Source: a virus | Lineage: Duplodnaviria > Caudoviricetes | DNA length: 26,145 nt | IMG/VR virus record: IMGVR_UViG_3300027571_000066 | Location: 1 to 26,145 of that record | Direction: 5' to 3' (one strand) | Shown: positions 2-24,673 of the stretch, in pieces | Layout of the letters: every line of letters begins with the position of its first letter | Numbering within the stretch: position 1 is the first letter of the stretch | Made by a program: the position numbers and the translations under genes | The notes under the pieces: generated by a model | What the model saw: the letters and a program-made list of their open reading frames with translations, nothing else | The model's database searches: none | What the model was told of the DNA's origin: nothing

Positions 2-2875
2 AGCTATTAAACGTAAAGGAGGATACTTATTCACAAACACCTGAATATCTTTACCAAAGCTGCCTAGTGGTTCAGTGAAGGTGTTCTCTCTTGCTCTTTT
101 AAGAGCTGTCTCCACAATAGGGTTAACGACTGATTTGTCTTTCTGCATTTTAATGGCATCAAGCACAGCATCATCAACAGCTTTTTCAACTAAAGCGTCA
201 AAGGTTTTTGTATCTTTATCTTTATACTTTCCTTCTGCCTTCCACTTCTTAACAATCTCTCTGTAAGCTACTGATCTAAAGGTTAACTGTTTAAATATTT
301 CATCACCAGCCGCTAGACCTCTAAAGGATAGTCTAAATAAGTTACCAACCCAATCAGAGAAAGGTGTGTTCTTTGCCTCTTCCCAACTAAGTTTACGTAA
401 GTCTATTTCCTTAGTGCCTACTGCAATACGGTCTACTTGTCCGTCAACTTCCTCTCGAACTTTAAACTCAGGGTCAAGGACATTCTTAGCCGTTTGTAGG
501 GCTTCCCAACCAGCTCTTAAAGATGTTCCAGCGTACTTACCGTAGCCATAGAACTGTCTAGCTGCGTCTACTAACTGAGTTTTATCACCTCTAGCTAATC
601 CTATTAAACCACCACCAGCTTGTTCAAAGACATCTATGAGGGGTATTATAGTGTTAGCCATTAAGTTAGTGGCTTGTGTTTTCCACGACAAGAGTAAGTT
701 ACCAACGTAGTATTCGTTAAACTGTTCCATTCTATTCTTGAACTTGTCTACAAATCTAGCATTACGTGGGTTTGTCTTAGCAGCATTAGTTATAGCCTGA
801 CTAAGTGCTTGTCCGTCTAGTGCTAATAAATCAGAAGGCATAGCGTTAATGTCATCCTGAGAATAGCGCATGATACGACCAGACTCACTTAACAGTCCTT
901 TATGATATGCGTAAGTTTGTTGGAAAGCCTGAGCAAGCTCGTTAGCTTTTCTTACTGTCTCTACATCACCAGCTTTATAAGCAGCAGTGTTTACTAAGTC
1001 ATCGTGAGCTTTAAGTATGGTATCACCCAGACTACGTACACCCATATAGAAAGTGCTGTCTGTTGTTAGTTCCTTTAAGCCCTTAACATAGTCAATAAGA
1101 GAACCTTTATTAAACTCAGGGTCTTTTATTAGTTTACTTATTAAGGCTTGTCCTTTCTTAACAGCAGTTGCTACTGGCACAGTGATTACTTCATCACCTG
1201 TACGTAAACTCCCACTCTCGGCTCTAGCTTCTTTTGTAGCTTCGTCCAGACCTTCTTTAGTTTTAGGAATTGTTGCTTCTTCGGTAACACCTTTAACTTC
1301 AATGTTCTCTGGTTTATTTACATCTTCTTTTGGTTTAGTATTAAGTGTTTCTATCTTCTCTAACTTAATGTGTTCTTTAGGATTCCAAAATATCTCTACA
1401 TGGTGTTCCTTAGTGTTAGTGAACCCGCCACCTTTATGCGAATACCCTTGAAAACCTTTTTGTTCTAAAAGGTATTTAAAGCCATCAAACATTTCCTGTA
1501 CTTCATCAGCAGGGATACCTTCACTGCCTGACCATTCTCTCAGGTCATCAAAGACATCACGGACTGTAGGGTTTGCGGGAAGGTCTTCTAACCACTCACG
1601 ATTAAACTCTGTAGTTTCAGATAACATATCAATAGTTTCATCATTTAAGGGCTGGTCAAGATCATATAGTTTTGCATTTTTAGTTTTAATAACTCTATAT
1701 CTTGTTGGGTTACCACCCTTACCTTTTTTACTGTAACCGCCAGCAACGTCTAGGGCATCGGTTGTATAAAAACCTTGTCCATAAATGTTCATGCTGGAGT
1801 AGGAGTCATACCCCTCACCTAACTTACCTAACTCTGTAGATGTTCCGTGGTACTGTTGTCCCTGACCTCTAGTATCTCTCTCTACTATTTTAGGTTCAGT
1901 ATCTACACCTTTAACTTCAATGTTCTCTGGTTTGCTGGGTTCTACTTTAGCTTCGCCTTTGAAAGTTGCCGCATCCTCTTTGAGAGGTATAAGTTGTTCT
2001 GCTTCTTCTACCTCATCAGCAACCTCTTTCATCAAGCTGTCAGCTTTCTCTGTGTTGCCGTTAATGTTTTCGTTCTTAGCGTCTTTAGCTTTCTTCGTTG
2101 CTCTTGCTAGTTTAAATACCAGCTCGAAAGACAGACCAATGATCGAGCCTTCAACAGCATTCTTAAATCTGCCTTCTGCATCGCTGTCATCTGGATCAGC
2201 CGCTAGGTAATCTGTGAGTGCTGTCTCTATACCAAAGTGTTGTGCAAGGTTAGACAGTCGTGCTTCATGTGGATCAAAGACAACAGCGTCTGCCATTGCT
2301 CCTTGTGCGGTAGCCTTGACAATCTTACCTGTAGTGGTTGCCGCTTGGAAAGGTTTTAAGAACTTACCCGCACCAACAAAGCCTGTAACAAACTGTGCTA
2401 CTGGAGCTACGAACTCTGCTGTAGGTGTATCAAACCCATCGTCCCGTGTCGGGAAGAGGTGATCCATATCTACAAGATTGTTAGCATTAAGTGCTTGTAA
2501 GTCAGACCATTCATCAGGTTTCATGTAAGATATTTTCTTACCAAACATAGAAAAGAGGTGTACGCCATTCTCATCTTGAAAAGACTTTAGTCTGTCATCA
2601 TCTCCCTCGCCTGTAATAGCTACACCGCCTAAAGGTATAATACTTTCTAAAAACTCACCTGACTCTTTTATAGATGAGCCTACACCCTTAACGACAGCTT
2701 CAGGTATCTCTGCGATGTTCTCAAGAACTGTTGTACCTTCTTCTTGTACTGGCTCTGGTTGAGTTGTAGGATTGTTCAGTTGTTCGTACTGGTCTCTAAA
2801 CTCTCTGGCTTTGTCTAGGTTGCCGTTGTTTATTTCTTCTTGGGCTGACCTTAATAATTCAATGCCTGTAGCCAT
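2..2875 (-). CDS. Large internal virion (ejection) protein, T7 gp16-like position; 3' end beyond window edge; contains an ADP-ribosyltransferase-like domain at ~1379-1858
   Basis: Absent from the ORF track because it has no stop in the window. ATG at 2875 (MATGIELLRSAQEE...) has an AGGAG SD; no in-frame stop in the parts I read (958 codons to the edge). Segments DYLAADPDDSDAEGRFKNAVEG, NEYYVGNLLLSWKTQATNL and RGLAAGDEIFKQLTFR resemble marine podovirus internal virion proteins. It is the last gene of the internal-virion block. Confidence 0.85.
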   Translation of the reverse strand, partial: MATGIELLRSAQEEINNGNLDKAREFRDQYEQLNNPTTQPEPVQEEGTTVLENIAEIPEAVVKGVGSSIKESGEFLESIIPLGGVAITGEGDDDRLKSFQDENGVHLFSMFGKKISYMKPDEWSDLQALNANNLVDMDHLFPTRDDGFDTPTAEFVAPVAQFVTGFVGAGKFLKPFQAATTTGKIVKATAQGAMADAVVFDPHEARLSNLAQHFGIETALTDYLAADPDDSDAEGRFKNAVEGSIIGLSFELVFKLARATKKAKDAKNENINGNTEKADSLMKEVADEVEEAEQLIPLKEDAATFKGEAKVEPSKPENIEVKGVDTEPKIVERDTRGQGQQYHGTSTELGKLGEGYDSYSSMNIYGQGFYTTDALDVAGGYSKKGKGGNPTRYRVIKTKNAKLYDLDQPLNDETIDMLSETTEFNREWLEDLPANPTVRDVFDDLREWSGSEGIPADEVQEMFDGFKYLLEQKGFQGYSHKGGGFTNTKEHHVEIFWNPKEHIKLEKIETLNTKPKEDVNKPENIEVKGVTEEATIPKTKEGLDEATKEARAESGSLRTGDEVITVPVATAVKKGQALISKLIKDPEFNKGSLIDYVKGLKELTTDSTFYMGVRSLGDTILKAHDDLVNTAAYKAGDVETVRKANELAQAFQQTYAYHKGLLSESGRIMRYSQDDINAMPSDLLALDGQALSQAITNAAKTNPRNARFVDKFKNRMEQFNEYYVGNLLLSWKTQATNLMANTIIPLIDVFEQAGGGLIGLARGDKTQLVDAARQFYGYGKYAGTSLRAGWEALQTAKNVLDPEFKVREEVDGQVDRIAVGTKEIDLRKLSWEEAKNTPFSDWVGNLFRLSFRGLAAGDEIFKQLTFRSVAYREIVKKWKAEGKYKDKDTKTFDALVEKAVDDAVLDAIKMQKDKSVVNPIVETALKRARENTFTEPLGSFGKDIQVFVNKYPPLRLIA
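1287..1315. repeat. 29-bp direct repeat, copy 1 (ACACCTTTAACTTCAATGTTCTCTGGTTT)
   Basis: Identical to 1905-1933; both copies encode KPENIEVKGV in the large ORF. Confidence 0.95.
1905..1933. repeat. 29-bp direct repeat, copy 2
   Basis: Identical to 1287-1315; offset 618 bp (206 codons), so in frame. Confidence 0.95.
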
Positions 2876-2887
2876 AGTAATCTCCTA

Positions 2888-4327
2888 TTAATTTAAAGCA
2901 CCGTCAACTGCTGCCTTTAGTCTTATTTCTTCAGGACTCATAAAGTCATCTTCGCCAATTAATTTCTTATAGCCTTGTAGTTTTTGTATAACCTTAAACA
3001 AAGCTTCGTTCCTCTCAGGTAATTTCATATCATGCCATTCAGGGCTAGTAGATAACGCTAAGAAATCCTCTTCAAACATTAATCGTAGAGGGGCAAATCG
3101 AGGAGCTTCTACAAACATATCAAGGACGCTGTTATCTCTAACCAAGGTTTTAACTATTTCATTAGCTCTTACATAAGCTTTACCTTGATAAGGGTTTTGT
3201 CTTGGGGCTTGTGTTAAGAAAGTGTTTAGTAAGCCTTCATCTAAACGACTTGAGTTTCTATTTAGCCAATCAATCTTATCAGGTGCTTGGATGTAGCCAT
3301 CGTATAGGTCAATCATATCTCCAGCATCAATCTCTTCTGTTGAAAGACTCTTGTAAGCTTTGTATATCTTATCAGCATCAGAAGCGGCAGTACCTACACC
3401 AGCATCCTCAGCGGTCTTAACAGCAGCTATTAAATTTTCTGTAGTTGCTTCGCCAGTAGTGAAAAGATTTCCTATAGTAGACTGTAGTGTTACTTTAGCT
3501 TGTTTAACACTCGCTACCTTCTCTGAGGCTAATCTATTTTGTTCAGCCCGCATACGAGACTGTACAGCTTCTCGTTGCCTGAAAGCTAAATCGTATTCAT
3601 CGTTAGATAGGATTGTACGCTGACCTTCTACTTCACCAAGAAGTAAAGAGTATAGACGAAAGTCTCCATCTTCGTTTGCAGAGCGTAGTGCAGTAGACAT
3701 GAGAAGCTTCTTTGCTTCCTGTGGTGATCTATCCATTGACTGAATAGACTCGTCCATGTCTTTAAATAATTTAAGAAACTCTGGTGACGATGCGCTTAAG
3801 GTTTCCCCTCTTAGTGCGTTAATAGCAAAGTTACCAAGCTCTACATCTTCCTCACCTATTTCAAAAGATTTTACAGATGTGCCGTATGTAGTGTAAAAGT
3901 TACCGCCTATTACCTTATTAAATGAATTTTTAGCTGTGTCGGTAGTTAAAGAGGATAGTGTATCTTGATAGGCTGGGTTACTTGATGTGAACGCTTCCCA
4001 TACTTCAGCACTGGTTGGTCTTTTACCATCTTTAATGCTGTAATCATAAGTTTCTGCAAACTCCTGAACAGCAGGGATAAGCTCGCTAGAGGCGTTAGAA
4101 GCTCTCAGCAGCTCTAAATTTGTTACTTGTTCTTTTGCTTTACTAGTTAAATTTTTACCAACTTGTGAAACAGTACCAGCAGCAGAGTCAAGAGCCGCAG
4201 CTACTTGCATACCTTTGGTATTTCTTTCACCTTGGACAAATGTGTCCACTTGTCTAGCAGTAACCTGATAATCAGGCGCAGCCGCAGCATTACGCCAATT
4301 TACTGATTTATCTATTGAGGTTGCCAT
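2888..4327 (-). CDS. Internal virion protein (T7 gp15-like position)
   Basis: 479 aa, probably helical. Lies between the gp14-like and gp16-like genes; N-terminal 'PDYQVTARQVDTFVQ' resembles marine podovirus core proteins. Call rests mainly on synteny. Confidence 0.65.
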   Translation of the reverse strand: MATSIDKSVNWRNAAAAPDYQVTARQVDTFVQGERNTKGMQVAAALDSAAGTVSQVGKNLTSKAKEQVTNLELLRASNASSELIPAVQEFAETYDYSIKDGKRPTSAEVWEAFTSSNPAYQDTLSSLTTDTAKNSFNKVIGGNFYTTYGTSVKSFEIGEEDVELGNFAINALRGETLSASSPEFLKLFKDMDESIQSMDRSPQEAKKLLMSTALRSANEDGDFRLYSLLLGEVEGQRTILSNDEYDLAFRQREAVQSRMRAEQNRLASEKVASVKQAKVTLQSTIGNLFTTGEATTENLIAAVKTAEDAGVGTAASDADKIYKAYKSLSTEEIDAGDMIDLYDGYIQAPDKIDWLNRNSSRLDEGLLNTFLTQAPRQNPYQGKAYVRANEIVKTLVRDNSVLDMFVEAPRFAPLRLMFEEDFLALSTSPEWHDMKLPERNEALFKVIQKLQGYKKLIGEDDFMSPEEIRLKAAVDGALN

Positions 4328-4337
4328 TTAGTTTTTC

Positions 4338-4937
4338 CTATGAATAATTACTGTAGCCTTGAGCTGCCCCAAGTACCGATTGTCCTATCTTTAATCCTGT
4401 TGCTGTAGAGCTTGGTTTAGAGACTGAGTTAATTCTTGACTGGGTTCTTGTTCTTGCGCCTAGCCTTTCTTCTCTTAAACCTTGCACAGTGTTATCAAAG
4501 TTTCTATCAACAGTGGTATTAGCCATTAGACCTTGACGCTCGATGTCTTGGATGACTGCATTGTTGTTTAAGATTGCACCGCTTTCCGCACCAGCTACAG
4601 TTGCTCGTGCCGCCATCTCTCTTGTTTCTAAATCTGTTTGTAGTTTCTTTTCGGCAGCCGCTGTGTCTTCTTGAGCCTCTTGGAGGTTTAGCTGTCGATC
4701 ATTATCTATTTGTGCTTGTAGGGCGTTCTGTCTGTTGGCGGCTTCTTGTGCTTCCTGAGCTTTATGCGCTTGAGAAGCGGACGCAACTCCCATTACACCT
4801 GAAGCCACACTAGCGAATTGCCCAAGTGTTGCTGTAGCTGCTGCAACATTAGCTGCCGCTGCTGCTGTACCCACTGCCGCTGTTGCTGTAGCACCGCTAC
4901 TTGCTATTGTAGCTATGGCTGTTATTGGATCACACAT
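4338..4937 (-). CDS. Internal virion protein B (T7 gp14-like)
   Basis: 199 aa, starts MCDP, Ala-rich N-terminus, Gln/Glu-rich coiled region and 'ARATVAGAESG' motif; follows the gp13-like gene. Confidence 0.8.
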   Translation of the reverse strand: MCDPITAIATIASSGATATAAVGTAAAAANVAAATATLGQFASVASGVMGVASASQAHKAQEAQEAANRQNALQAQIDNDRQLNLQEAQEDTAAAEKKLQTDLETREMAARATVAGAESGAILNNNAVIQDIERQGLMANTTVDRNFDNTVQGLREERLGARTRTQSRINSVSKPSSTATGLKIGQSVLGAAQGYSNYS

Positions 4938-5397
4938 TTTCTTTTATCCTCACAAATTGGTAGAAGGGTTGTTTTCCTACTCCGTATTCTTTTTCTAGTT
5001 TGATGAACTGAAAGCCTAGTGCTTTTAACCATCTCATCGATACTGTATTTTCTGCGTGTACGTAGTTAAGCAAGAGTGGGTGTTGGTCGTTCTTTTCCTC
5101 CACCCACTTTGCTGAAACTGGTAGCATCACCTTTTTGGTCTCAGGTAGTTTATGAGAACCTAACAACCAAGGACTTGCAAATATACCACAATCAGACAAC
5201 CCAAACATTCCCACTACATCACCATCCTCATGGATGATACTAAAGCATTCAGGAGCAGAAGCGTTATAGCTTTCCTGTAATGCCCTTAAGGGTGTAAGCC
5301 CGTTACTAGCCATTACTTCCTTAGCGTCTTGTTCACGCATAGCTGGGGCTAGTTCTCGGCAATCCTGAAATGTTGCTTTTCTATAGTAGTGTGTCAT
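4930..5397 (-). CDS. Internal virion protein A (T7 gp13-like, DUF2833/GNAT-like)
   Basis: Likely start at MTHYYR (5397), just after the tail tube B stop; 155 aa. Motifs 'MREQDAKEV', 'PWLLGS' and 'LLNYVHAENTVSMRWLKALGF' are typical of this family. Confidence 0.85.
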   Translation of the reverse strand: MTHYYRKATFQDCRELAPAMREQDAKEVMASNGLTPLRALQESYNASAPECFSIIHEDGDVVGMFGLSDCGIFASPWLLGSHKLPETKKVMLPVSAKWVEEKNDQHPLLLNYVHAENTVSMRWLKALGFQFIKLEKEYGVGKQPFYQFVRIKENV

Positions 5398-5399
5398 AT

Positions 5400-8177
5400 T
5401 TAGAGTCTCTGGTTTCGTAGTACGATATACCCCTCCCACTCTGCACTTTGGAACGTGCTGGGAAGGTGTGAGTCGTTAGTTATTGTTATAGCTGTGTCTG
5501 TTGCCCGTGCTTGCACCCCAACTTGGAACGCTCCGTCATCGATAACAGCAGACTGATCTAAAAGGTTGTGTTGGTTATCTAATACACGCCCTGTAAAGTG
5601 TGAGGTAATTGGAGACCTACCTACGGAGTCTACAGTAACGTCAAAGTGTCCCGTGTCATTATAGTTAAACGACATCTTCCTTAACTGGAAGCGGGCAAGC
5701 TGTGTTGAGTCACCTTGTGTTGGTTTAAACACTTGCTCTGACATTTGATACTTAAATGTATAGGGTACTCCTACAACTAAAGTACGGTTGGTGAATAACT
5801 CATTGTTTTGATCGAAGGTTGGATTAGCTGGGTCAAACGACCCTAAAGATAGACCGTCCTGATCAATAGCTATTAAACCAACTGTAGGCACTCCATCAGG
5901 TAGATTGAACTGAGTAATGGGGGTGGCTTGCCAATCAGCGTTTGTTAATTTATATTGCCTATCTAATAAGACTTCAGTGTGGTCATATTTAACATCAAGT
6001 ATCTCGTATCTGCCATCTTCAAATGTAAAATACATTAAATTGTTGGTAAAGAAGATGTGGGCTATGTCTTCTGTAAATATCCACTTAGACCAAGCACTTT
6101 GTAACCGTTCCTCTGCAGAATTGTACCACTTATAAATGTAACATTCTTTCTTGTTGGTAGAAGTAAGGCAAGCGAGCATATCCTCATTAGAGGACGAAGC
6201 AAATTGTCTTACATTTCCTTCAAGGTATGATGGAACGTGTGAGGTAACGGAAGCAGCATCTCTGACTTCTGTGGTTTCTCTTGTGAAGAACTCACGTACT
6301 CCTGCGTAACCGCTTGATTGTGTGGCAAAGAATACACTGTTACCCGCACCTACTGGTGGGGCTGTTAGATCACATTCATACTTTGTTGATTGATCTACTG
6401 TAATTTCAGAAGGTGTTAACAACTGACTAGCAGATAATGTGAACTGGTTAAGCTCTGAGAATAACAAAAGGTTATCCTGAATAGGCACAGCAGCTTTAAG
6501 CTCAGACACTTCATTCTGACTGACTGATACATCAATAGGATCAGAGTCTAGTAATGAACGTACTGTTGTGCGCCAGAAGTTGAAGTAACCACTAGCCTCA
6601 CTAAAGATCACATTCTCTCCTGAAAGAACACCTAAGCGGTTTCTGTGGAAGAATATGTCTGATATCTTTTGCCCAACAAAACTAGGAGCAGTGTTTGTGT
6701 TATCATCACCAGCTTTGCGCTCATCCCACTCTCCTTGACTAAAGCTAAAACTAAGTCCAGCACTCTGCCTCAAGGTGTGGGGCATTGTTGTTAGGTCGAA
6801 GTAGTTCTCTAGGTTAGGGGCTACAGACTCTTTCCAATAACCAGAGCCAGCCGAACCTTGAAAGACCACATGAAAGTCATCTTCTTTCTTTTGGTTGTCC
6901 CCTACTACTCCCAACCTAAACCCATGGTCACATTGGTTGGGTAGGTCTGTGAATGATTTAGCATTTCCTTTAAAAGCTTTGAGATTAGTACCACCGTCAT
7001 CATCTGTAACAGTAATGTCGAAATCTCCAAAAGATCCAGAAGCCAAAGTGTTAACGATGAAGTAAGCATCTTTGTTAGCCGTGGCGGGTGTCACATAACC
7101 GTCTGTTGAGTTTGCAGAATCAAGAAAAGTTATAGATCCGCTATCTCTGTGATAAGCTGTTATAATATTGGTTCTATAGGTTCTTGAAGTTGATAATACT
7201 GAGTGTGGGAGTTCTAGTACCGTGTTACTAATACGCTTCCAGCCGTTTGCTCCAGTTACATCGTAGGGTATAGTAGTGCCACCCACCACTACAACAATGC
7301 TATTACTGTCAATATTGGATTGTGTTATTGGTATTGCATTTGTGGTGGTTATACGCTTAAGTGCTGTTATGGCAGAAGACGAAGTACCCGAACTTGCTGC
7401 GTTAAAGGTTTCAACCACTCTTGCGCCAAGCTCCGTCTCAATCTTTTCACGAAGAGAGGCAGAACCCTCACTCATTATTTTACTTACTTTAAGCTCATTA
7501 TCGTTGTGGTTTGTACCGCTTGCTATTATGTTTTGAGCCGAAGACTGCTCAACCGCTATTACGCCTGAACTCTCTTTTGACTCAACCCTTACAGTATATG
7601 TTCTACCATAGTTTACACTCTTAAGGTAGACTAAGGCTTGATTGAGATCGTTGGCGGGGCTTATAAGATCGCTCATCTCTACTGTCTTTTCTTTGTTAAC
7701 AATGAACGTAGCATCAGCAACAGAGGTAGAGGTAATTTTAGAAGTATTGTAAGGTAAGTATGATGTATCATCACTATTATGGGAAAGCCAATTACCGTTT
7801 GCAAGCCAGCTACTATGACCTGATTGGTATCGTAAATTGCCATCAAGGTCGTAAACGTGTACTCTACGGTTGTTTGTTATAACAACATGATATTGCTCAT
7901 CATCACTTCTCTTGTATGTGTGGAAGTACGCAGTATCTAATCCTGTTAAATCTACGTAGTCACTCCTAGAGTGCAGGTTGCCTTGAGAAGAGCTTGAAGC
8001 CCCACTGAGACACTTTAACTTTTGTACAAACTTTGTAGGTGGGCGTTTCTTAAGACCATCAACCACATCCGAGAAACCGTTTTCCTGTACTTCTCCCTGA
8101 CTCTCTAATCGTAGAGCTGCGGGTTGTTGACTAACCCCGTTAATGAGGTTGGGTATGCTTTTAGAAACTAAAGCCAT
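5400..8177 (-). CDS. Tail tubular protein B (nozzle, T7 gp12-like)
   Basis: 925 aa. N-terminal 'SIPNLINGVSQQP', 'GLKKRPPT', 'TMPH', 'GDDNTNTAPSFVG', 'FFHRNRLG' and 'QSAWSKW' are hallmark gp12 motifs. Confidence 0.95.
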   Translation of the reverse strand: MALVSKSIPNLINGVSQQPAALRLESQGEVQENGFSDVVDGLKKRPPTKFVQKLKCLSGASSSSQGNLHSRSDYVDLTGLDTAYFHTYKRSDDEQYHVVITNNRRVHVYDLDGNLRYQSGHSSWLANGNWLSHNSDDTSYLPYNTSKITSTSVADATFIVNKEKTVEMSDLISPANDLNQALVYLKSVNYGRTYTVRVESKESSGVIAVEQSSAQNIIASGTNHNDNELKVSKIMSEGSASLREKIETELGARVVETFNAASSGTSSSAITALKRITTTNAIPITQSNIDSNSIVVVVGGTTIPYDVTGANGWKRISNTVLELPHSVLSTSRTYRTNIITAYHRDSGSITFLDSANSTDGYVTPATANKDAYFIVNTLASGSFGDFDITVTDDDGGTNLKAFKGNAKSFTDLPNQCDHGFRLGVVGDNQKKEDDFHVVFQGSAGSGYWKESVAPNLENYFDLTTMPHTLRQSAGLSFSFSQGEWDERKAGDDNTNTAPSFVGQKISDIFFHRNRLGVLSGENVIFSEASGYFNFWRTTVRSLLDSDPIDVSVSQNEVSELKAAVPIQDNLLLFSELNQFTLSASQLLTPSEITVDQSTKYECDLTAPPVGAGNSVFFATQSSGYAGVREFFTRETTEVRDAASVTSHVPSYLEGNVRQFASSSNEDMLACLTSTNKKECYIYKWYNSAEERLQSAWSKWIFTEDIAHIFFTNNLMYFTFEDGRYEILDVKYDHTEVLLDRQYKLTNADWQATPITQFNLPDGVPTVGLIAIDQDGLSLGSFDPANPTFDQNNELFTNRTLVVGVPYTFKYQMSEQVFKPTQGDSTQLARFQLRKMSFNYNDTGHFDVTVDSVGRSPITSHFTGRVLDNQHNLLDQSAVIDDGAFQVGVQARATDTAITITNDSHLPSTFQSAEWEGYIVLRNQRL

Positions 8178-12717: not shown

Positions 12718-12736
12718 CTATAGGGGGTGGTTAGAG
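12718..12736 (-). promoter_or_regulatory. Phage RNA polymerase promoter for the structural module (CTCTAACCACCCCCTATAG)
   Basis: Identical 19-mer at 20943-20961; ends in CTATAG like T7-family promoters; intergenic at a module boundary. Confidence 0.85.
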
Positions 12737-12821: not shown

Positions 12822-14702
12822 CTATATTTCGCATGAACCTGACGAGCAAGCCAACTCCTGAGTTCCAGTAGTGGTGTCCTCTTTTTCATATTCACCTAGC
12901 CTGTCCCATTCAATCTCTGAAGGGGTCTCTCGTTTAAGTTCCATATACCTGTCCTTATCAATTGCTTCATAAGGAGCTTGAGCATACACATGGTCAGTGC
13001 GTGGTAGGAAGCTAATGCCTGAGCAGCTATCTAGTCGTTCCCATAGCCATTGTCCTGCCGCTAGGAACTCATCATCGGAGTAATATATAGTAACACTAGG
13101 TTTATGTTCACACCAATGTTCCTGATATATCTCCCACAAATCTAACTGTTGTTTGACGTTAAGTTCACTAACACAAGTTGCACCCTTGGGAGCTTTCACA
13201 GGGAAGTCAAACACGTAGTTCTCTGTGTTCATTACATCCTTCTCCCACGACACACCTGAGTCTTTTAGGAATGCAGAGATAGGGTCTTTCCCATCGCTAC
13301 GTACTCGTCTTATATAATAAGGAGAGAACCTAGCATGAATACCACTAGCACTGTCTACCAGTTGGGACACTGTACCTGACGGCTTCACACACGTAATAGC
13401 TGTCGATTGGTTAACACCTAACTCAGCCGCAAAGTGCTTGTTGGTTTGTACAGCAATCTTCTTCAGTTTCTCTAGTGTCTCTTTCAAGACAACAAGGCTA
13501 CCCTTACCAGATAACAACTTGTGATCCATGATGCCTGTCATACTTACACCAAGTAAACATTCTTCTTGTGTGTTGTTCTTCCAGACAGAGCGTACATACC
13601 TAAAGTCAGTTAGCGTTGACTGTAGCGTTCCTAAGATTGTTGCTAGTCGTGTCTTACGTTCTAAAGATTCTTGTGTGTCATCAGCACGTACTACAATCTC
13701 AGACAAGTTACATACCTGTGCAGAGCGTAGGATAATCTCACTACAGGGGTTAGTCCCAAAGTCGTGACCTATATCTCTACGTCCATTTCTCTCTGCTTGT
13801 TTCTTTGCAGCAGTACGGGAGAAGATACCTCGCTCCCCTGCTTTAGATTTATAGAGTGCTACCCATTCTTCCAGAAAGGTTTCATACTCTGGCTTCTCAT
13901 TGTAGACGGCACTGTTGTTTGCCAAGGCTCTTTGCGTTTGTGTCTCCCACCAATTCCCAGACTTCGCATGACGCATACGGTCATCAGACAAGTTAGATAG
14001 AGAGATGAGAGCAGACCTACGCACACCACCAACAACAACGATTTCAGCAATTTTACAAACAACGTCATGGCATTCAATACTCGTTAGCTTACGTCCAGCA
14101 GCGTTCTTGAAAGTAGAAACAGTAAACTCGAAAAGCCTAACCAAAGGATCAGCCCCGCTCGATCTACCACCAAATGTTTTAAGCCTTTCACCTTTAGCCC
14201 GTAACTTAGAGACATCCCAAGTAGGCACTTGACCCGAATACAAAAGACTAACCAACTCACGGAAAGCTTTAGCCCAACCAATTTTACTGTCTTGGACATG
14301 GATTGTAGTTTCTGTTTCATGGAACTCCTCACTGATTGTTGGTAACTTGGCTACAGACTGCCTCTCTACGGAGAAGCCTACACCTGTGCCACACATTAGT
14401 ACATAGAGTATCTCATCAAATACTCTGGGGTTATCTACGGCAACGTAGGAACAATTAAACCCTGCCATGTTGTCTCGCTTCAGTGCCTCACCCGCTGTCA
14501 TTAGACAACGCATGGATGGCATAATCTCTTGCTTGTAGATAGCATCAAAGAGTTCATACGCTAGTGTAGTATCTAACTGTCCTCGATCTACCCAGAAGTT
14601 AATGTACCGCTGTACAGTTTCCTTCCATGTCTCTCTTCTGTTATCTTCTTCCCGCCACCTAGCGTAACGGGATTTGTGTATGTATTGTTGATATGAATCC
14701 AT
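12822..14702 (-). CDS. nrdJ: Ribonucleotide reductase, class II (adenosylcobalamin-dependent, monomeric type)
   Basis: 626 aa. Motifs 'PSMR', 'FNCSY', 'GTGVGFSV', 'VVGGVRRSA', catalytic 'TNPCSEI', 'CVKPSGT' and C-terminal Cys pair 'ACSSGSCEI'. No ATP-cone and no beta-subunit gene nearby. Confidence 0.88.
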   Translation of the reverse strand: MDSYQQYIHKSRYARWREEDNRRETWKETVQRYINFWVDRGQLDTTLAYELFDAIYKQEIMPSMRCLMTAGEALKRDNMAGFNCSYVAVDNPRVFDEILYVLMCGTGVGFSVERQSVAKLPTISEEFHETETTIHVQDSKIGWAKAFRELVSLLYSGQVPTWDVSKLRAKGERLKTFGGRSSGADPLVRLFEFTVSTFKNAAGRKLTSIECHDVVCKIAEIVVVGGVRRSALISLSNLSDDRMRHAKSGNWWETQTQRALANNSAVYNEKPEYETFLEEWVALYKSKAGERGIFSRTAAKKQAERNGRRDIGHDFGTNPCSEIILRSAQVCNLSEIVVRADDTQESLERKTRLATILGTLQSTLTDFRYVRSVWKNNTQEECLLGVSMTGIMDHKLLSGKGSLVVLKETLEKLKKIAVQTNKHFAAELGVNQSTAITCVKPSGTVSQLVDSASGIHARFSPYYIRRVRSDGKDPISAFLKDSGVSWEKDVMNTENYVFDFPVKAPKGATCVSELNVKQQLDLWEIYQEHWCEHKPSVTIYYSDDEFLAAGQWLWERLDSCSGISFLPRTDHVYAQAPYEAIDKDRYMELKRETPSEIEWDRLGEYEKEDTTTGTQELACSSGSCEI

Positions 14703-15070
14703 TATCGGTCATCTCCTGAGCCTTGTAGCGTATCGTTAATCTTACGCTTGTATAGTTTGTTTAAATTATTAAATGCAATGTCACTCAGATTCAGTCCTGC
14801 TTCGTCTGTCAGCATGGCTAGATACCAGAACACATCTCCTAGCTCTGATGCTAATTGTTCTTTAAAGTTAGCTGGTTCTCCATCCCTAATCTTTTTCTTA
14901 ACCTTCCCTGCTACTTCACCAGCCTCACTTGCTAGACCCATAGTTAGATATACTAGCGATGAGTCTTTAGGGAAGACGGCTGTGGCGGCACACTTACTTT
15001 GATACCAGTCAAACCCTTCAAACATTCCTGTAATTTGTTCATAACTTGCTCCACCTAAATCGTTTCTCAT
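14702..15070 (-). CDS. MazG-like nucleotide pyrophosphohydrolase
   Basis: Likely start at MRNDLG (15070, ATGA overlap with the upstream gene); 122 aa. Motifs 'GLASEAGEV', 'ELGDVFWY', 'NLNKL..R' and 'GSGDDR'. Confidence 0.88.
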   Translation of the reverse strand: MRNDLGGASYEQITGMFEGFDWYQSKCAATAVFPKDSSLVYLTMGLASEAGEVAGKVKKKIRDGEPANFKEQLASELGDVFWYLAMLTDEAGLNLSDIAFNNLNKLYKRKINDTLQGSGDDR

Positions 15071-15348
15071 CCCCAGTTCTCCCCTTCGGTTTTTTCCATT
15101 AATTCGATCATCTTGTTTAAGTACCAGACAGCCTTCTTTGCATCTTGAATAGGCTTGCCTTTGTTCCAAAGCCTTGTGCTGGTGTATTTAATTACGTTAC
15201 CGTGACAATAGGAGATAGCATCAAACTCCCCTAGCACATCTACAATGTAATCTATTGTTTCTATCTTCCCTGCATTGTAATGCTCTGGGCTGTTGACAGG
15301 ATCAGCGGCTCTTTCTGTTACCTTAACTTCTGAAATTACTGCATCCAT
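15067..15348 (-). CDS. DUF3310 family protein (T7 gp1.7 nucleotide kinase-like)
   Basis: 93 aa with 'DPVNSPEHY...IETID...GNVIKY...DAKKAVWYL'. Confidence 0.88.
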   Translation of the reverse strand: MDAVISEVKVTERAADPVNSPEHYNAGKIETIDYIVDVLGEFDAISYCHGNVIKYTSTRLWNKGKPIQDAKKAVWYLNKMIELMEKTEGENWG

Positions 15349-20942: not shown

Positions 20943-20961
20943 CTATAGGGGGTGGTTAGAG
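20943..20961 (-). promoter_or_regulatory. Phage RNA polymerase promoter for the replication module (CTCTAACCACCCCCTATAG)
   Basis: Identical to 12718-12736; begins 2 nt after the RNAP stop codon and lies upstream of SSB. Confidence 0.85.
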
Positions 20962-20963
20962 AA

Positions 20964-22622
20964 TTAAGCAAAAAAGTAATCACTCTGTAGCACCTCCTCA
21001 ATGTTTAAAGTTCCCCGTGGTGGAGGTTCAGGTATTTCTGTACCCTCCGTTAACGTACTTACTGCGCTATCGTAGAGATTTTGCAGTACATCGTTATCTC
21101 TATACATCTCAACAAACGCTTCTCTTAACTTATCGTTAAGTTTCACCATGTTGGGACTGTGTGTGCCATAGCTGTCGTGTACCATAGCAAAGTCTGTTAT
21201 GCCTTCCTTCAAACACTTATCGACTGTGAACGTCAAAGCCGCAGCATCTAGGCTATGTGTGAAGTTAGGACTAGCACCGCTAACACTCTTGCGTGAGTCT
21301 ACTGTCTTCTCTAGTGGCTGTCTGTAGTTCAGCTTAACTGTAGAACCGCTTAAGTGTGTCCAGATGCGTAGCTTCTTGGTGTTACTGTACGACTGTCTCA
21401 CTAATAACCCTGTTGGTGTCTCCCACTCAAAGGGTCTGCCCTGCTTACTGTACAACTTTGCAATGCTCTTGATGTAGTCCATTACTTTATGAGCCGAGAC
21501 AATAACCTCATTGATGGCTTTCCAGACAAACTTAGCCAAGTATGTGGCTGGTTGCCAGAAGTCATCACCCCAAGGGTTGTTGCCCTTACATTTTTCTTCC
21601 AGTGCTTCCAGTATGTAGTCTCTACAACTGTGTTGTGTCCCTGAGTAGGGTACAATCATCACAGGTCTCTTACATATCTTTCTACACACACCAATGTTTA
21701 GTAGCTCAGTGGCTAGTGTTGTACCTTCTTGCTGTAACAGTTCCGTTGTTCTCTTTGCTACATCCGTGTAAATGTCTTGAGGTGTAGCGTGTGGTGTTAG
21801 GTTTACTGCCTTACCACCCTCAAGGTCTCTGAGCATTGCTGAGAGGTGTTGTAAGCCATTGCACGAGCCATCACTAGCACAGGGTAGGTGCGTTTCGAAA
21901 TGCTCCCCAAACTGTCTAGCGTTGCTGTACAATGCCCACTCGTAACACCATGCAAGTGCTTGCCAAGGTTTATCTGCTTCCTGCCACCATCTGTTAGACA
22001 AAGGATCGTTATAAACATCGACAGCGTTATCTACGTTCATGTACGCCCACATCTCTCGATCTTCTAAACTTACCTTATCTACTCCAAATACATTAGCACC
22101 ATGTATAGCCAACCACTTAGCTTCCTCATCGTTTGTGATATTAGCTGGGTTAGCAAACTCTAGTAGTGCTTTACTGTAGTCTGCATTTTGTGGTGAAAGG
22201 AAAGACTCTACAGGATACTTACGACCCCTGAAGTCTAACTGCCATACATACCACATATTCTCTATGTCTTTATACTGTTCGGCAAGTTGAATAGTACGCT
22301 CTACCTGAATCCGTTTGGACATAGACTTATTGTTGTAGCTGTGTATCTTGTTACGCTCTGACTTAAATGCCTTAAAGACTGCTGTCTCCTCATCGTTAAG
22401 GTATTTAGGTTCTTTACTAAAAGGATACTTAGGCAATGCTAAGTTATCTCTTGGTGGTAAACCTTCCCATGACTGACCACTGTCCCAACACTGACGTAGG
22501 GTATCGACAACAAACTCATTGATACGCCAAGGTGTTCTCTGTAGTGCGTTAACACACTGGTACTCTAGAGACAGGTCACGGTCTTTCAGAGCATTGATGT
22601 AATCTTGTGCTGTCTGTCTCAT
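20964..22622 (-). CDS. T7-type RNA polymerase, C-terminal catalytic fragment
   Basis: 552 aa with 'DFRGR', motif A 'DGSCNGLQH', motif B 'RKICKRPVMIVPY', 'PNFTHSLDA', motif C 'VHDSYG' and C-terminal 'YFFA'. GAGG SD upstream of the ATG. Confidence 0.93.
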   Translation of the reverse strand: MRQTAQDYINALKDRDLSLEYQCVNALQRTPWRINEFVVDTLRQCWDSGQSWEGLPPRDNLALPKYPFSKEPKYLNDEETAVFKAFKSERNKIHSYNNKSMSKRIQVERTIQLAEQYKDIENMWYVWQLDFRGRKYPVESFLSPQNADYSKALLEFANPANITNDEEAKWLAIHGANVFGVDKVSLEDREMWAYMNVDNAVDVYNDPLSNRWWQEADKPWQALAWCYEWALYSNARQFGEHFETHLPCASDGSCNGLQHLSAMLRDLEGGKAVNLTPHATPQDIYTDVAKRTTELLQQEGTTLATELLNIGVCRKICKRPVMIVPYSGTQHSCRDYILEALEEKCKGNNPWGDDFWQPATYLAKFVWKAINEVIVSAHKVMDYIKSIAKLYSKQGRPFEWETPTGLLVRQSYSNTKKLRIWTHLSGSTVKLNYRQPLEKTVDSRKSVSGASPNFTHSLDAAALTFTVDKCLKEGITDFAMVHDSYGTHSPNMVKLNDKLREAFVEMYRDNDVLQNLYDSAVSTLTEGTEIPEPPPRGTLNIEEVLQSDYFFA

Positions 22623-23401
22623 GCGTGTACCCTCACAAATGGCAAGTTGTTTATGTGTTCAGAGTAGTAACCACCACCCCAGAATGAATCCCAATCCTTT
22701 GGCTCGATAATACAAGGGCAATACCTTGGTAGTGCTACCTCGTTAGTCTCGTTAAACGCTTTGATCCACTCCTCTGTCTCTTGCGTTGGTACTACATGAT
22801 AAATGGTTTTCCTTTTCTGTATCTTCTTCTCCAGTTTAACAATACCTGTAGCAGTAATGATTAGATCAACCAGTTTAATACCCACGTTAATACGTTCCTG
22901 ACTTGTCCATGTAGGTAGGTCAACACCGTCACTATTAATCTTGTGGTCGAGACCGTAACGCTTGTGTAAGAAACCTTTATCTGATTTCTTGTTAGCTTCC
23001 TTGATCATGTTGGTAGCTACTTCCTTGTCTATCTGTAACCAGACATCTAATCTTTTCTGCGTTTCAATTTGTATACCAATGGTTCGACAAACTTTTAATA
23101 GCGTACCATTGTTTGCTAGGCTGTCGATCAAACATACTAAAGCTAGATAAGCTACCTTACCCGCATCCATACCCTTGAGTAAACTTTTGGATGTACTTCG
23201 GTTGTATCGTTTATCTACCTTACAGTGTTCTTCTATAGCCTCTTGTACAGGGTCAAGGATACCTTTGATAATGGTTCTACCATGCTTAGTCTTTGACCCT
23301 AATTCCTTTCCCAATAAATCCTGTAACTGCTTGTGGTAACGATCAATCCCTGACTGCACCATCTGATACTCTAGGTCTATCTGTTCTTCCAATGTTGCCA
23401 T
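22619..23401 (-). CDS. T7-type RNA polymerase, N-terminal domain fragment
   Basis: Likely start at MATLEE (23401, AAGGAGG SD); 260 aa. C-terminus 'PRYCPCIIEPKDWDSFWGGGYY...LPFVRVHA' aligns by eye with T7 RNAP 'PMFQPCVVPPKPWTGITGGGYW...LALVRTHS' (residues ~266-301). Confidence 0.9.
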   Translation of the reverse strand: MATLEEQIDLEYQMVQSGIDRYHKQLQDLLGKELGSKTKHGRTIIKGILDPVQEAIEEHCKVDKRYNRSTSKSLLKGMDAGKVAYLALVCLIDSLANNGTLLKVCRTIGIQIETQKRLDVWLQIDKEVATNMIKEANKKSDKGFLHKRYGLDHKINSDGVDLPTWTSQERINVGIKLVDLIITATGIVKLEKKIQKRKTIYHVVPTQETEEWIKAFNETNEVALPRYCPCIIEPKDWDSFWGGGYYSEHINNLPFVRVHA

Positions 23402-23548
23402 AATGCCTCCTTTTGGGACACGTATTAGTTTTACTGTGGCTTTACTCATAACTACCTACGTTAGCGGAGCAAAGGATTATGTGGAATGTGTTACTCATTA
23501 TCATCTTTTGTTAATCTTGTTACGGTGGCGTGATAAGGTTTCATGGGC

Positions 23549-23630: not shown

Positions 23631-23660
23631 GGACACTTTAGGACACTTAAGGACACAAGC
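23631..23660. repeat. Three tandem 10-bp units (GGACACTTTA, GGACACTTAA, GGACACAAGC); putative integrase arm sites
   Basis: Directly visible between integrase stop and att core. A fourth GGACAC is at 23416-23421 on the other side of the core. Confidence 0.75.
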
Positions 23661-24673
23661 TAATCTTCAAGTAAATTAGACCCACCAACCATAGTTGACG
23701 TATCCCATTTAGCATACTTGAGAGTGGTTGCAATATTTTTATGACCCATGTAACGCATGATGTTAGCAGTGTCCCAACCCTTCTCTGTTAGCCTTGTTGC
23801 TGTCGTATGTCTCCAAGTGTGCCAACACTTTTTAGTAAGACCTAAACCATCTCTCACCCTGTCCCAAGCTAGTCTGTGCTTGTACAATGGATCGTTAAAA
23901 GTCTTACGTTTGCGTAGTACCTCCTCTACTCTTTTAGTTATAGGCATCAGTAGTGGTTCACCGTTCTTTCTGTCTGGTATGTAAGCACCATACATCTGAG
24001 AACCATCAGCTCTAGTTTGCTGTAGCTTGATAAGATTATCCCCATCAATCTTCAACACCTCAGAAGCCCTCATGCCTGTGTCTACTGCCACGATAGCATA
24101 GTCACGTAGGTAATCTTCACCTAACCTCTCAAACTCGCTTAGAATGGCATTCTCTTCGTCCTTAGAGAAGTATTCAATACGTTCCCTACCTTTCTCACTC
24201 TGCCGTTTAAACTTCGGTACAGAAGTAAGTGCGCCTTCGTCTACCGCATTATCTAAACACTTTTTAAGACAAGATATGTGTCTGTTAACAGTAGATGGAG
24301 CATATCCTTGGTTCTCACGCATCCATCTGATCCAGTCAAACACTGTAGTAGTGCTGATACGATTGATGGGTGACTTCTCGCCCCAGTATTTACAGACAAT
24401 ACTCTGAATAAACATAACCTGTCGCTCATTCTTTGTATTAGCCCAGTAGTTCTCATGGCAACGATCAAACGCATAGCGTAACGTCCACCCTGATGCCTTA
24501 CCAGTCTCTCTGTTAACTTCCATAGCTGTGGGCATATTCCCTTGGGCTATCTCCCTTTGCCACATTGCCTCCAGTACAGTAGCATCTTCCTTAGTGGAGA
24601 GAGTTCGCCTGAACTTCTTCCCTTTGTATGTAACATAGGCTTCCCACCCGTTACCTCTTTGATTAACACTCAT
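23660..24673 (-). CDS. int: Tyrosine recombinase (phage integrase)
   Basis: 337 aa. Catalytic R in 'DTGMRASE', K in 'DRKNG', 'HTWRH', 'MGH...TLKY'; N-terminal arm-binding-like beta region. Confidence 0.93.
   Translation of the reverse strand: MSVNQRGNGWEAYVTYKGKKFRRTLSTKEDATVLEAMWQREIAQGNMPTAMEVNRETGKASGWTLRYAFDRCHENYWANTKNERQVMFIQSIVCKYWGEKSPINRISTTTVFDWIRWMRENQGYAPSTVNRHISCLKKCLDNAVDEGALTSVPKFKRQSEKGRERIEYFSKDEENAILSEFERLGEDYLRDYAIVAVDTGMRASEVLKIDGDNLIKLQQTRADGSQMYGAYIPDRKNGEPLLMPITKRVEEVLRKRKTFNDPLYKHRLAWDRVRDGLGLTKKCWHTWRHTTATRLTEKGWDTANIMRYMGHKNIATTLKYAKWDTSTMVGGSNLLED

Follow-up and report, generated by a model that had tools for sequence, protein, structure and literature searches.

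The DNA analysed here (the window, meaning the whole stretch) comprises the 26,145 nucleotides of virus record IMGVR_UViG_3300027571_000066 (Duplodnaviria; Caudoviricetes), which is rated 64% complete. Its minus strand carries, at 2..2875, a gene in the gp16 position of T7-like phages, encoding an internal virion (ejection) protein, with its 3' end cut by the window edge. Within this gene a 29-bp sequence occurs twice, as copy 1 at the N-terminal border of an internal domain (1905..1933, minus strand, residues 315-324) and as copy 2 at its C-terminal border (1287..1315, minus strand, residues 521-530). Between the copies lies a unique insert of 589 bp (1316..1904, minus strand), which together with one repeat copy makes up a 618-bp in-frame cassette that is absent from the empty alleles described below. 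The insert encodes a domain of predicted ADP-ribosyltransferase (ART) fold at about residues 334-505 (1360..1876, minus strand). The full-length form of this open reading frame (ORF), protein P0002, has 1362 residues, and the empty form has 1156.

The two 29-mers are identical, as originally described, and lie 618 bp or 206 codons apart, with no exact extension possible on either side. Both encode, in frame, KPENIEVKG and the first two bases of a Val codon, and a looser similarity continues for about 20 bp beyond the repeat on one side (49 nt, 82%). No other exact repeat in the window is as long; over 100 triplet shuffles the longest exact repeat had a maximum of 18 and a mean of 14.4. A contig from X6, a sequencing run that carries no flag as a potential source of the window, covers both copies with 0 differences, and contigs from X16/X17, which represent one sample, bridge both copies. 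No third copy of the 29-mer exists anywhere in the record, and its exact form was seen only within the window's own species. Some sister alleles have mismatched copies: copy 1 of the filled allele in X16/X17 is changed at 1906 and 1910, copy 2 of P0082 reads KPES for KPEN through one change, and P0084 has one change in the repeat. The suggestion that the identity of the two copies is actively maintained is therefore unsupported.

The original prediction held that recombination between the copies would remove 206 codons and leave an in-frame protein, and near-identical relatives do possess this precise empty allele (1156 versus 1362 residues). To look at this population, 8 of the 24 listed runs were examined, at the level of assembled contigs. 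A single copy without the domain is found in L002 and L032, in runs X19 and X20, and in proteins P0083, P0123-P0127 and P0150. In L002 the left flank of copy 1 is joined precisely to the right flank of copy 2, and the downstream flank is 99.6% identical to the window over 986 bp of nucleotide sequence; L032 has the same precise junction. In X19 (depth 32) and X20 (depth 26), two samples of one study, the contig skips exactly 618 bp, with the joint at 1286/1905. X6 and X16/X17 hold the filled form, and X15 and X18, which yield pieces of the insert and no junction-bridging contig, were counted for neither allele. In X5, a possible source of the window, the filled allele (depth 17.4) is accompanied by a 31-bp contig of depth 3 that fits both copies, and the assembly graph breaks at both copies; we infer that this short contig, whose 31st base is not shown, is the empty junction beside the filled allele.

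The same two states are seen among proteins. The P0002 cluster (15 members) and its close hits divide into nine filled proteins, one of them at the right junction only, and six empty ones, with P0150 as a seventh empty protein; five fragments of the recipient cluster that lie off the site (P0081, P0085, P0086, P0092 and P0093) were left uncounted. Pairs of filled and empty proteins differ at 0-1 positions over 1156 residues, the two forms interleave on three backbone trees, and within the window's species only these two states were observed, with no foreign domain. All three outgroup proteins (P0128-P0130, 74-77% identity) are empty, and L003/L004 carry a single copy with 6 of 29 positions mismatched. 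Because the empty outgroups have one diverged copy, the motif appears to be the scaffold's own linker, with the second copy arriving together with the insert; hence the 29-bp repeat is likely the gene's own linker, duplicated upon capture of the domain. The member of the species that branches off deepest, P0082, is filled and carries a domain allele that is 87.9% identical. These comparisons fit a capture close to the root of the species, after which loss and recombination recurred; a recent capture with wide recombination might produce them as well.

Of 541 candidate proteins, 78 longer ones carry the domain, and these fall into 21 scaffold groups. A copy 98.3% identical to that of the window is in P0003, a protein whose scaffold has no blastp hit to P0002. 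The segment held in common with this different gp16 family (P0003; L026 and L027) spans 1323..1906 (minus strand) and stands there between other flanks and without a repeat; L026/L027 are 96.3% identical to the window at the nucleotide level over 1323-1919. Across 192 domain codons, 12 synonymous and 4 non-synonymous changes separate the window from L026. X19 and X20 contain contigs with loose ends at 1323 and 1906, and in these two samples the donor-type context co-occurs with the empty recipient allele. The gp13 gene of the donor-type loci is 92% identical to that of the window at the nucleotide level, and these loci belong to relatives of the window's phage. The domain is also present in short proteins of 260-380 residues, some of them complete (P0140, P0142-P0146 and P0007), and it can thus exist outside scaffolds of gp16 size.

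At the left junction, EVKGV of the recipient resembles ETKVV or DAKAV of the donor type over a few codons. At the right junction, donor-type and empty alleles agree over 9 bp in register. The right junction zone (1316..1343, minus strand) includes 7 bp (1316-1322) that match neither the donor type nor the empty allele, and a 21-bp (7-codon) tandem unit is expanded there, by one unit in X16 and by three in P0082. An exact-match test of the flanks of 13 other carrier loci found repeats of at most 14 bp, and an approximate test on 5 of the 13 found the repeat of L021, which is considered below.

The conserved residues of the domain are H343-G344, Y370, Y381, H480 and H491. The H343-G344 pair, the strand-1 His of the ART-PolyVal / Tox-ART-HYD2 clade, is present in 77 of the 78 carriers, and Y370, which belongs to a conserved NIYGQGFYTTD block, and Y381 are each present in all 78, providing the strand-2 Tyr of that clade. 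A His-Gly pair with two tyrosines 11 residues apart recalls the NAD+ site of PARP-type enzymes, and mono-ARTs without the acidic residue exist. With the Pfam profile PF18760 (ART-PolyVal), 12 of 17 aligned family members match at E <= 0.01, and P0007 scores above the cut-off, at 33.9. The structure model of the domain has a mean pLDDT of 71.8; its best match in BFVD is ART-PolyVal-like (E 1.7e-3, probability 0.99), and in the Atlas it scores 0.95 against a cluster in which 22% of the members carry ART-PolyVal. A sequence search with the domain gave no relative of solved structure. The best solved-structure match of the model is an ejection-protein chain of cyanophage A4 (PDB 9K3A; probability 0.99, E 0.011), with a Z of 8.0, a level that can come from common arrangements, a root-mean-square deviation of 4.1 and 155 aligned residues; because the match spans chain residues 464-1605, it is not assignable to one domain. 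Judging from its length and from the accessible part of the A4 paper (PMC12002296), the matched chain is probably gp27, and chain B of 9K3A may hold an ART-fold domain that is unannotated. We predict that the domain of the window acts like an H-Y-type ART; that it is an injected, active effector is likewise a prediction.

The assignment of the host gene is fixed by the gp15-position, gp14 (PF24072 T7_gp14) and gp13 (PF11090/phrog_308) genes upstream of it (2888..5439, minus strand); the 479-residue ORF at 2888-4327 takes the gp15 role by position, without a family match. On the overlapping contig L033, genes for a tail fibre, a holin and an endolysin come after the gene. It is the largest core gene, and it matches PHROG 6651 (internal virion protein) at E 1e-10 for the window protein and 2.9e-18 for the empty form. 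Since it follows the gp15 position, precedes the tail fibre and matches an internal virion profile, we regard it as the gp16-position gene. Its product is likely ejected into the host. Its hydropathy has weak peaks of 1.38 at residue 155 and 1.12 at residue 239, both ahead of the insert. According to the accessible part of Swanson et al. 2022 (PMC8954989), the portion of T7 gp16 after the membrane segments faces the cytoplasm; the insert lies C-terminal to the weak peaks, which makes delivery of the domain to the cytoplasm plausible.

Profile searches show T7-like gene content in the window (RNA polymerase, primase-helicase, DNA polymerase, portal, capsid, tube, nozzle, gp13 and gp14), and the stretch is present in 20 runs, all of which (20/20) are marine or viral metagenomes. 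The domain has no match among 50,697 annotated phage records, the closest RNA polymerases to that of the window are only 38-40% identical, and scans of genome contigs returned no relative of the empty protein and portal matches of only 45-50% identity, in mixed metagenome-assembled genomes. An NCBIfam search with 9 proteins gave no match.

That other domains might occupy the same site was also anticipated, and they were found, as the divergent allele in P0082 (88%), as a Zeta-toxin-like kinase in P0132, and as three domains in a second phage group. P0132 is a distant member of the window's family (about 35% identity) with the kinase at the cassette site, where P0133 has nothing. Flanking repeats (at least 7 identities in 10 residues) were found in 4 of 69 testable carriers, two of them with 10 identities, including the window's own; the remaining 9 of the 78 carriers, with unmatched boundary patterns or a missing flank, were outside this test. 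Chance controls gave 2 in 1380 shuffles and 0 in 1500 cross-pairs. Hence flanking repeats are rare among carriers, yet above chance.

The second group was entered through the DNA-level case L021 (the same as L040) and has gp16-like scaffolds without a hit to that of the window; its junctions are known from assembled contigs. In L040, L041 and L042 the flanks are 95.9-97.5% identical at the nucleotide level, and three unrelated domains stand at one site. The repeats of L040 and L041 are 34-45 bp long, with in-frame spacing of 582 and 324 bp. A 24-nt pattern taken from this joint occurs in 7 viral contigs, 5 of them new. Among 10 loci examined, 8 hold the 33-bp joint, in 14 copies altogether: 11 copies have 0-4 mismatches and the other 3 have 5-7. 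In L042 and L044 the joint is present in partial form only, L042 lacking a complete right-hand copy, and partial copies also occur in L048 and L049. The N-terminal scaffolds of these loci are 96%, 72-75% or 26-36% identical or give no hit. In G001 (C1:6950-8436), three in-frame joints bound two cassettes in a gene for 1963 residues that lies between the gp15 position and the tail fibre, and its 30.6 kb contain no joint copy outside this gp16-position gene. From the arrangement of L040, L041 and L042, domain swapping is shown for this second group.

The 11 cargo segments at the joint represent 7 types. Three of them match ART-PolyVal weakly (L042, L050 and the first segment of L051), and two segments of the second group belong to the window's domain family; when that family was compared by hhalign with two cassettes of the second group, the probabilities were 1.9 and 5.2, which is no evidence of kinship. 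The cargo of L041 has only weak Atlas leads, to PARP-like and Arr-like clusters. Segments without a family match (L045/L049/the second of L051, L048 and L044) are candidates for new injected enzymes. A third case is known from proteins only: an 11-residue motif stands three times in P0026, and exactly the segment between its first two copies is missing from P0147. That segment is GNAT-like by eye, with no Pfam hit, and the motifs also set off an ART-like domain. If a polyvalent protein is defined by at least two disparate effector domains in a single chain encoded among the virion genes, the window protein has one such domain, and P0026 and the gp16-position protein of G001 have two or more.

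To account for these patterns, we propose, with a probability of roughly 70%, that the 618-bp block is a gain-and-loss cassette that places a predicted ART-fold domain in the linker of a likely ejected protein, and that the repeat is linker sequence that was duplicated as the gene took up the domain from a relative infecting the same cell. Capture would have involved a staggered pair of crossovers where the sequences share short, imperfect homology, with one crossover at the motif's 3' end and the other just 5' of it, duplicating the bases in between and keeping the reading frame. Thereafter, the repeats could serve slippage or general phage recombination, by which the block would be excised precisely; crossovers within the repeats or the flanks could carry it onto empty backbones or exchange domain alleles. 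A re-mobilised cassette would bring its repeats with it, and the repeat would in this way turn into a shared joint; the second group, with one 33-bp joint, seven domain types and two cassettes stacked in one gene, would represent this spread state. Once ejected, the domain is predicted to bind NAD+ and either to mono-ADP-ribosylate a host target or to hydrolyse NAD+, and it may be useful against some hosts and dispensable on others. The original prediction offered the scar of a domain insertion and a built-in exchange hotspot as alternatives. Both parts stand, but they are not alternatives, in that a capture scar in this lineage would then serve as the exchange site. More tentatively, and on balance we think it somewhat doubtful, the gp16 genes of T7-like marine phages could sustain an integrase-free, integron-like exchange, in which joints born as capture duplications spread across unrelated scaffolds and a shared pool of injected domains is inserted, stacked, swapped and excised, possibly as circles of 300-800 bp, under balancing selection driven by host defences.

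Several observations weigh against the capture-and-turnover proposal. The absence of a flanking repeat from 65 of the 69 testable carriers indicates that repeats are unnecessary for domain movement. With the deepest-branching member P0082 filled, capture may predate the species, and the empty alleles within it may all be secondary losses. The donor-type (P0003) family also has empty outgroups (L034 at 83%, L035/L036 at 66%), and transfer may have run in either direction. At the 9-bp match, 8 of the 15 bp before copy 2 of the filled allele differ from the prediction of a clean crossover. The minor junction of X5 comes from contigs of a possible source of the window itself and could be a library chimera. 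In the second group, five loci were found with the exact 24-nt pattern, and one copy in each is identical by construction. As for the domain, the window's own copy scores 17.7 bits with PF18760 against a cut-off of 31.2, and a DUF3990 match is likewise below cut-off. Solved ART-fold chains (MbcT, NatT, diphtheria toxin, ParT and PARPs) match weakly, at Z 2.2-3.4. No conserved acidic residue occurs over positions 488-500 in the 78 carriers (H491 75/78, V493 75/78, E494 21/78), and the strand-5 Asp that belongs to the ART-PolyVal / Tox-ART-HYD2 clade as defined in the accessible part of PMC5512222 is lacking; the strand-5 mapping is our own reading, hhalign to a canonical member having fallen short of that strand.

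Some of these observations would suit a different history, in which one old illegitimate insertion left a neutral scar, the empty alleles are passive deletions, and the repeat has no part in gain or exchange. The outgroups are empty, the exact 29-mer is confined to its own species, the copies drift in sister alleles, the species holds just filled and empty states with no foreign domain, and most carriers have no repeats. However, the 12 synonymous versus 4 non-synonymous codon changes suggest constraint on the domain, its alleles have been exchanged (P0082 at 87.9% versus P0003 at 98.3%), and the second group swaps domains at a repeat-bounded site with a joint that crosses scaffold families. 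We consider such a neutral history unlikely. A dedicated, selected switch, in which a site-specific recombinase such as the phage's tyrosine integrase moves cassettes as circles in the manner of an integron, seems improbable to us. The integrase is indeed encoded in the window (23660-24673), the junctions of the empty alleles are precise, and arrays of three joints and two cassettes exist; but neither repeat family has a hairpin or dyad (z-scores 0.05, 1.36, -1.41 and -0.23), the record holds no further copy of the 29-mer, and the integrase, the sole recombinase in this 64% complete record, lies about 21.7 kb away. Moreover, the repeats are wholly different between lineages and vary in length (29 bp, 34-45 bp and partial copies), which fits exchange driven by homology.

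It is also conceivable, at a still lower probability, that selection acts on the peptide, the repeats being protease cleavage or chaperone sites that free each domain, with DNA identity as a by-product. Each motif flanks a domain on both sides, and processing of polyvalent proteins is proposed in the accessible part of PMC5512222. Yet the 14 second-group copies show 23 non-synonymous versus 8 synonymous codon differences from the reference copy, core codons retain their third bases even in copies not used for the search, and the motifs are unrelated between lineages, that of the window's lineage being an ordinary linker that has drifted in the outgroups. Finally, although the evidence consists of assembled contigs and a repeat length of 29-45 bp is close to k-mer sizes in common use, it is very improbable that the empty or swapped alleles arose by collapse or chimera formation at the repeat, given that the empty contigs have their own flanking single-nucleotide polymorphisms (1955, 1976, 1982 and others) and occur in samples where no filled junction was seen (X19 and X20), the outgroups are empty with a diverged single copy, and L042 has no complete right-hand copy at which to mis-join.

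Known mobile elements were considered separately and rejected. For an intein or transposon, no splicing, homing endonuclease or transposase match was found in Pfam, PHROG or NCBIfam. The insert begins at Asp, with Lys next after it, which we count against an intein, and the 25 longest inverted repeats all lie away from the insert ends, where a transposon would have its terminal inverted repeats. An att-like, integron or shufflon site was set aside for want of a dyad or hairpin and of an adjacent dedicated recombinase.

T4 Alt is an ART packaged in the phage head, and like it and the polyvalent proteins the window protein is a large virion-associated protein with an ART-like domain predicted to act at entry. 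Iyer et al. 2017 (PMC5512222) described polyvalent proteins with ART domains, for which Pfam has the family PF18760 ART-PolyVal. In the accessible part of that work, Zeta-toxin kinase and GNAT-like domains appear as alternative cargo and the same domain has accreted repeatedly and independently, but no mechanism is given at the nucleotide level and neither direct repeats nor linkers are mentioned, cassette recombination being no more than a suggestion for a Verrucomicrobium locus. In the present case, by contrast, the sequences show the junctions, the empty alleles, swapped cargo and a donor-type copy that is nearly identical, and the domain differs from ART-PolyVal in being without the conserved strand-5 Asp. 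The mosaic ejection proteins of Swanson et al. (PMC8954989, accessible part) share the gene position and the swapping of domains; those swaps concern terminal peptidoglycan hydrolase domains, exchanged between gp15 and gp16 over long times, whereas the present cargo is internal, polymorphic within a population and bounded by repeats. The pre-ejectosome of cyanophage A4 (PMC12002296, PDB 9K3A) is related to our case in that one of its ejection-protein chains is the best solved-structure match of the domain, and ADP-ribosylation is not mentioned (0 occurrences) in the accessible part of that paper. An ejectosome protein acting against the cyclic oligonucleotide-based antiphage signalling system (CBASS) is reported in the accessible part of a preprint (bioRxiv 10.1101/2025.07.23.666291).

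Shuffling at repeats is likewise known. The PeSL cassettes and mini-circles of T4-type phages, as presented in the accessible part of Arbiol et al. 2010 (PMC2839356), resemble our case in that modules are inserted, deleted and replaced through recombination at short repeated elements, perhaps by way of circular intermediates. However, PeSLs are intergenic promoter-terminator elements that shuffle whole genes, whereas the present repeats are coding, in frame and unstructured, and shuffle domains within one structural gene. In the antireceptors of Streptococcus thermophilus phages, collagen-like repeats separate variable regions (PMC5601072, accessible part, citing Duplessis and Moineau 2001). 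These too are intragenic coding repeats bordering exchangeable domains of a virion protein, but they are low-complexity arrays with receptor-binding cargo in a tail protein, while the cassette of the window brings a predicted enzyme into an ejection protein, and its border consists of one linker, duplicated and able to pass from scaffold to scaffold. A search of literature titles and abstracts, with most subscription papers outside its coverage, returned no repeat-bounded in-frame effector cassettes in gp16-like genes. Thus the ingredients (polyvalent proteins, mosaic ejection proteins and repeat-mediated shuffling) are known, and their combination and the base-level evidence appear to be new. 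In a laboratory assay of 1994, cited in PMC5630979, Kong and Masker reportedly saw deletion between short direct repeats in T7 DNA, which would offer an ordinary route to precise loss and is silent on the natural gain or swap of domains.

So far, the acquisition of enzyme domains by polyvalent and ejection proteins has been inferred from protein architectures. Here it becomes visible at base resolution, with the empty site, a donor-type copy, the duplication and turnover in living populations, and it pinpoints an ejection-protein linker that accommodates 100-490 inserted residues. Filled and empty alleles with 0-1 differences over 1156 residues are natural isogenic pairs that could be used to test the role of the injected ART-like domain. 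In-frame repeats in gp16-position genes also provide a search handle, which has already yielded seven cargo types, several without a family match, as candidates for counter-defence at the time of entry.

Other parts of the same region vary as well. L002 is 94-99.6% identical to the window across gp14-gp16, is missing about 105 bp where gp14 begins (window 4795-4900) and is just 80% identical over part of the nozzle gene (5400-8177); these are additional mosaic blocks of this population. The last 200 residues of the gp16-position protein (P0002 residues 1160-1360) occur in at least two or three divergent allele types among its relatives, independently of the cassette state.

Elsewhere in the window, where no tRNA was found, the T7-like RNA polymerase is encoded in two minus-strand ORFs of 276 and 552 residues (22619-23449 and 20964-22622) with a 4-bp overlap. 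Because its N-terminal part is a 278-residue frame of its own in G009 (65% identity), the split looks natural; in G007 the enzyme is unsplit, with 826 residues. The tyrosine integrase (minus strand) lies ahead of the RNA polymerase, and its presence makes a temperate lifestyle likely. A class II ribonucleotide reductase (12822-14702) and MazG (14702-15169) are both encoded on the minus strand. An exact 19-bp repeat lies upstream of the portal module (12718-12736) and downstream of the RNA polymerase gene (20943-20961); on the coding strand its end resembles a T7-type promoter, and we take it to be, probably, the promoter of this phage.

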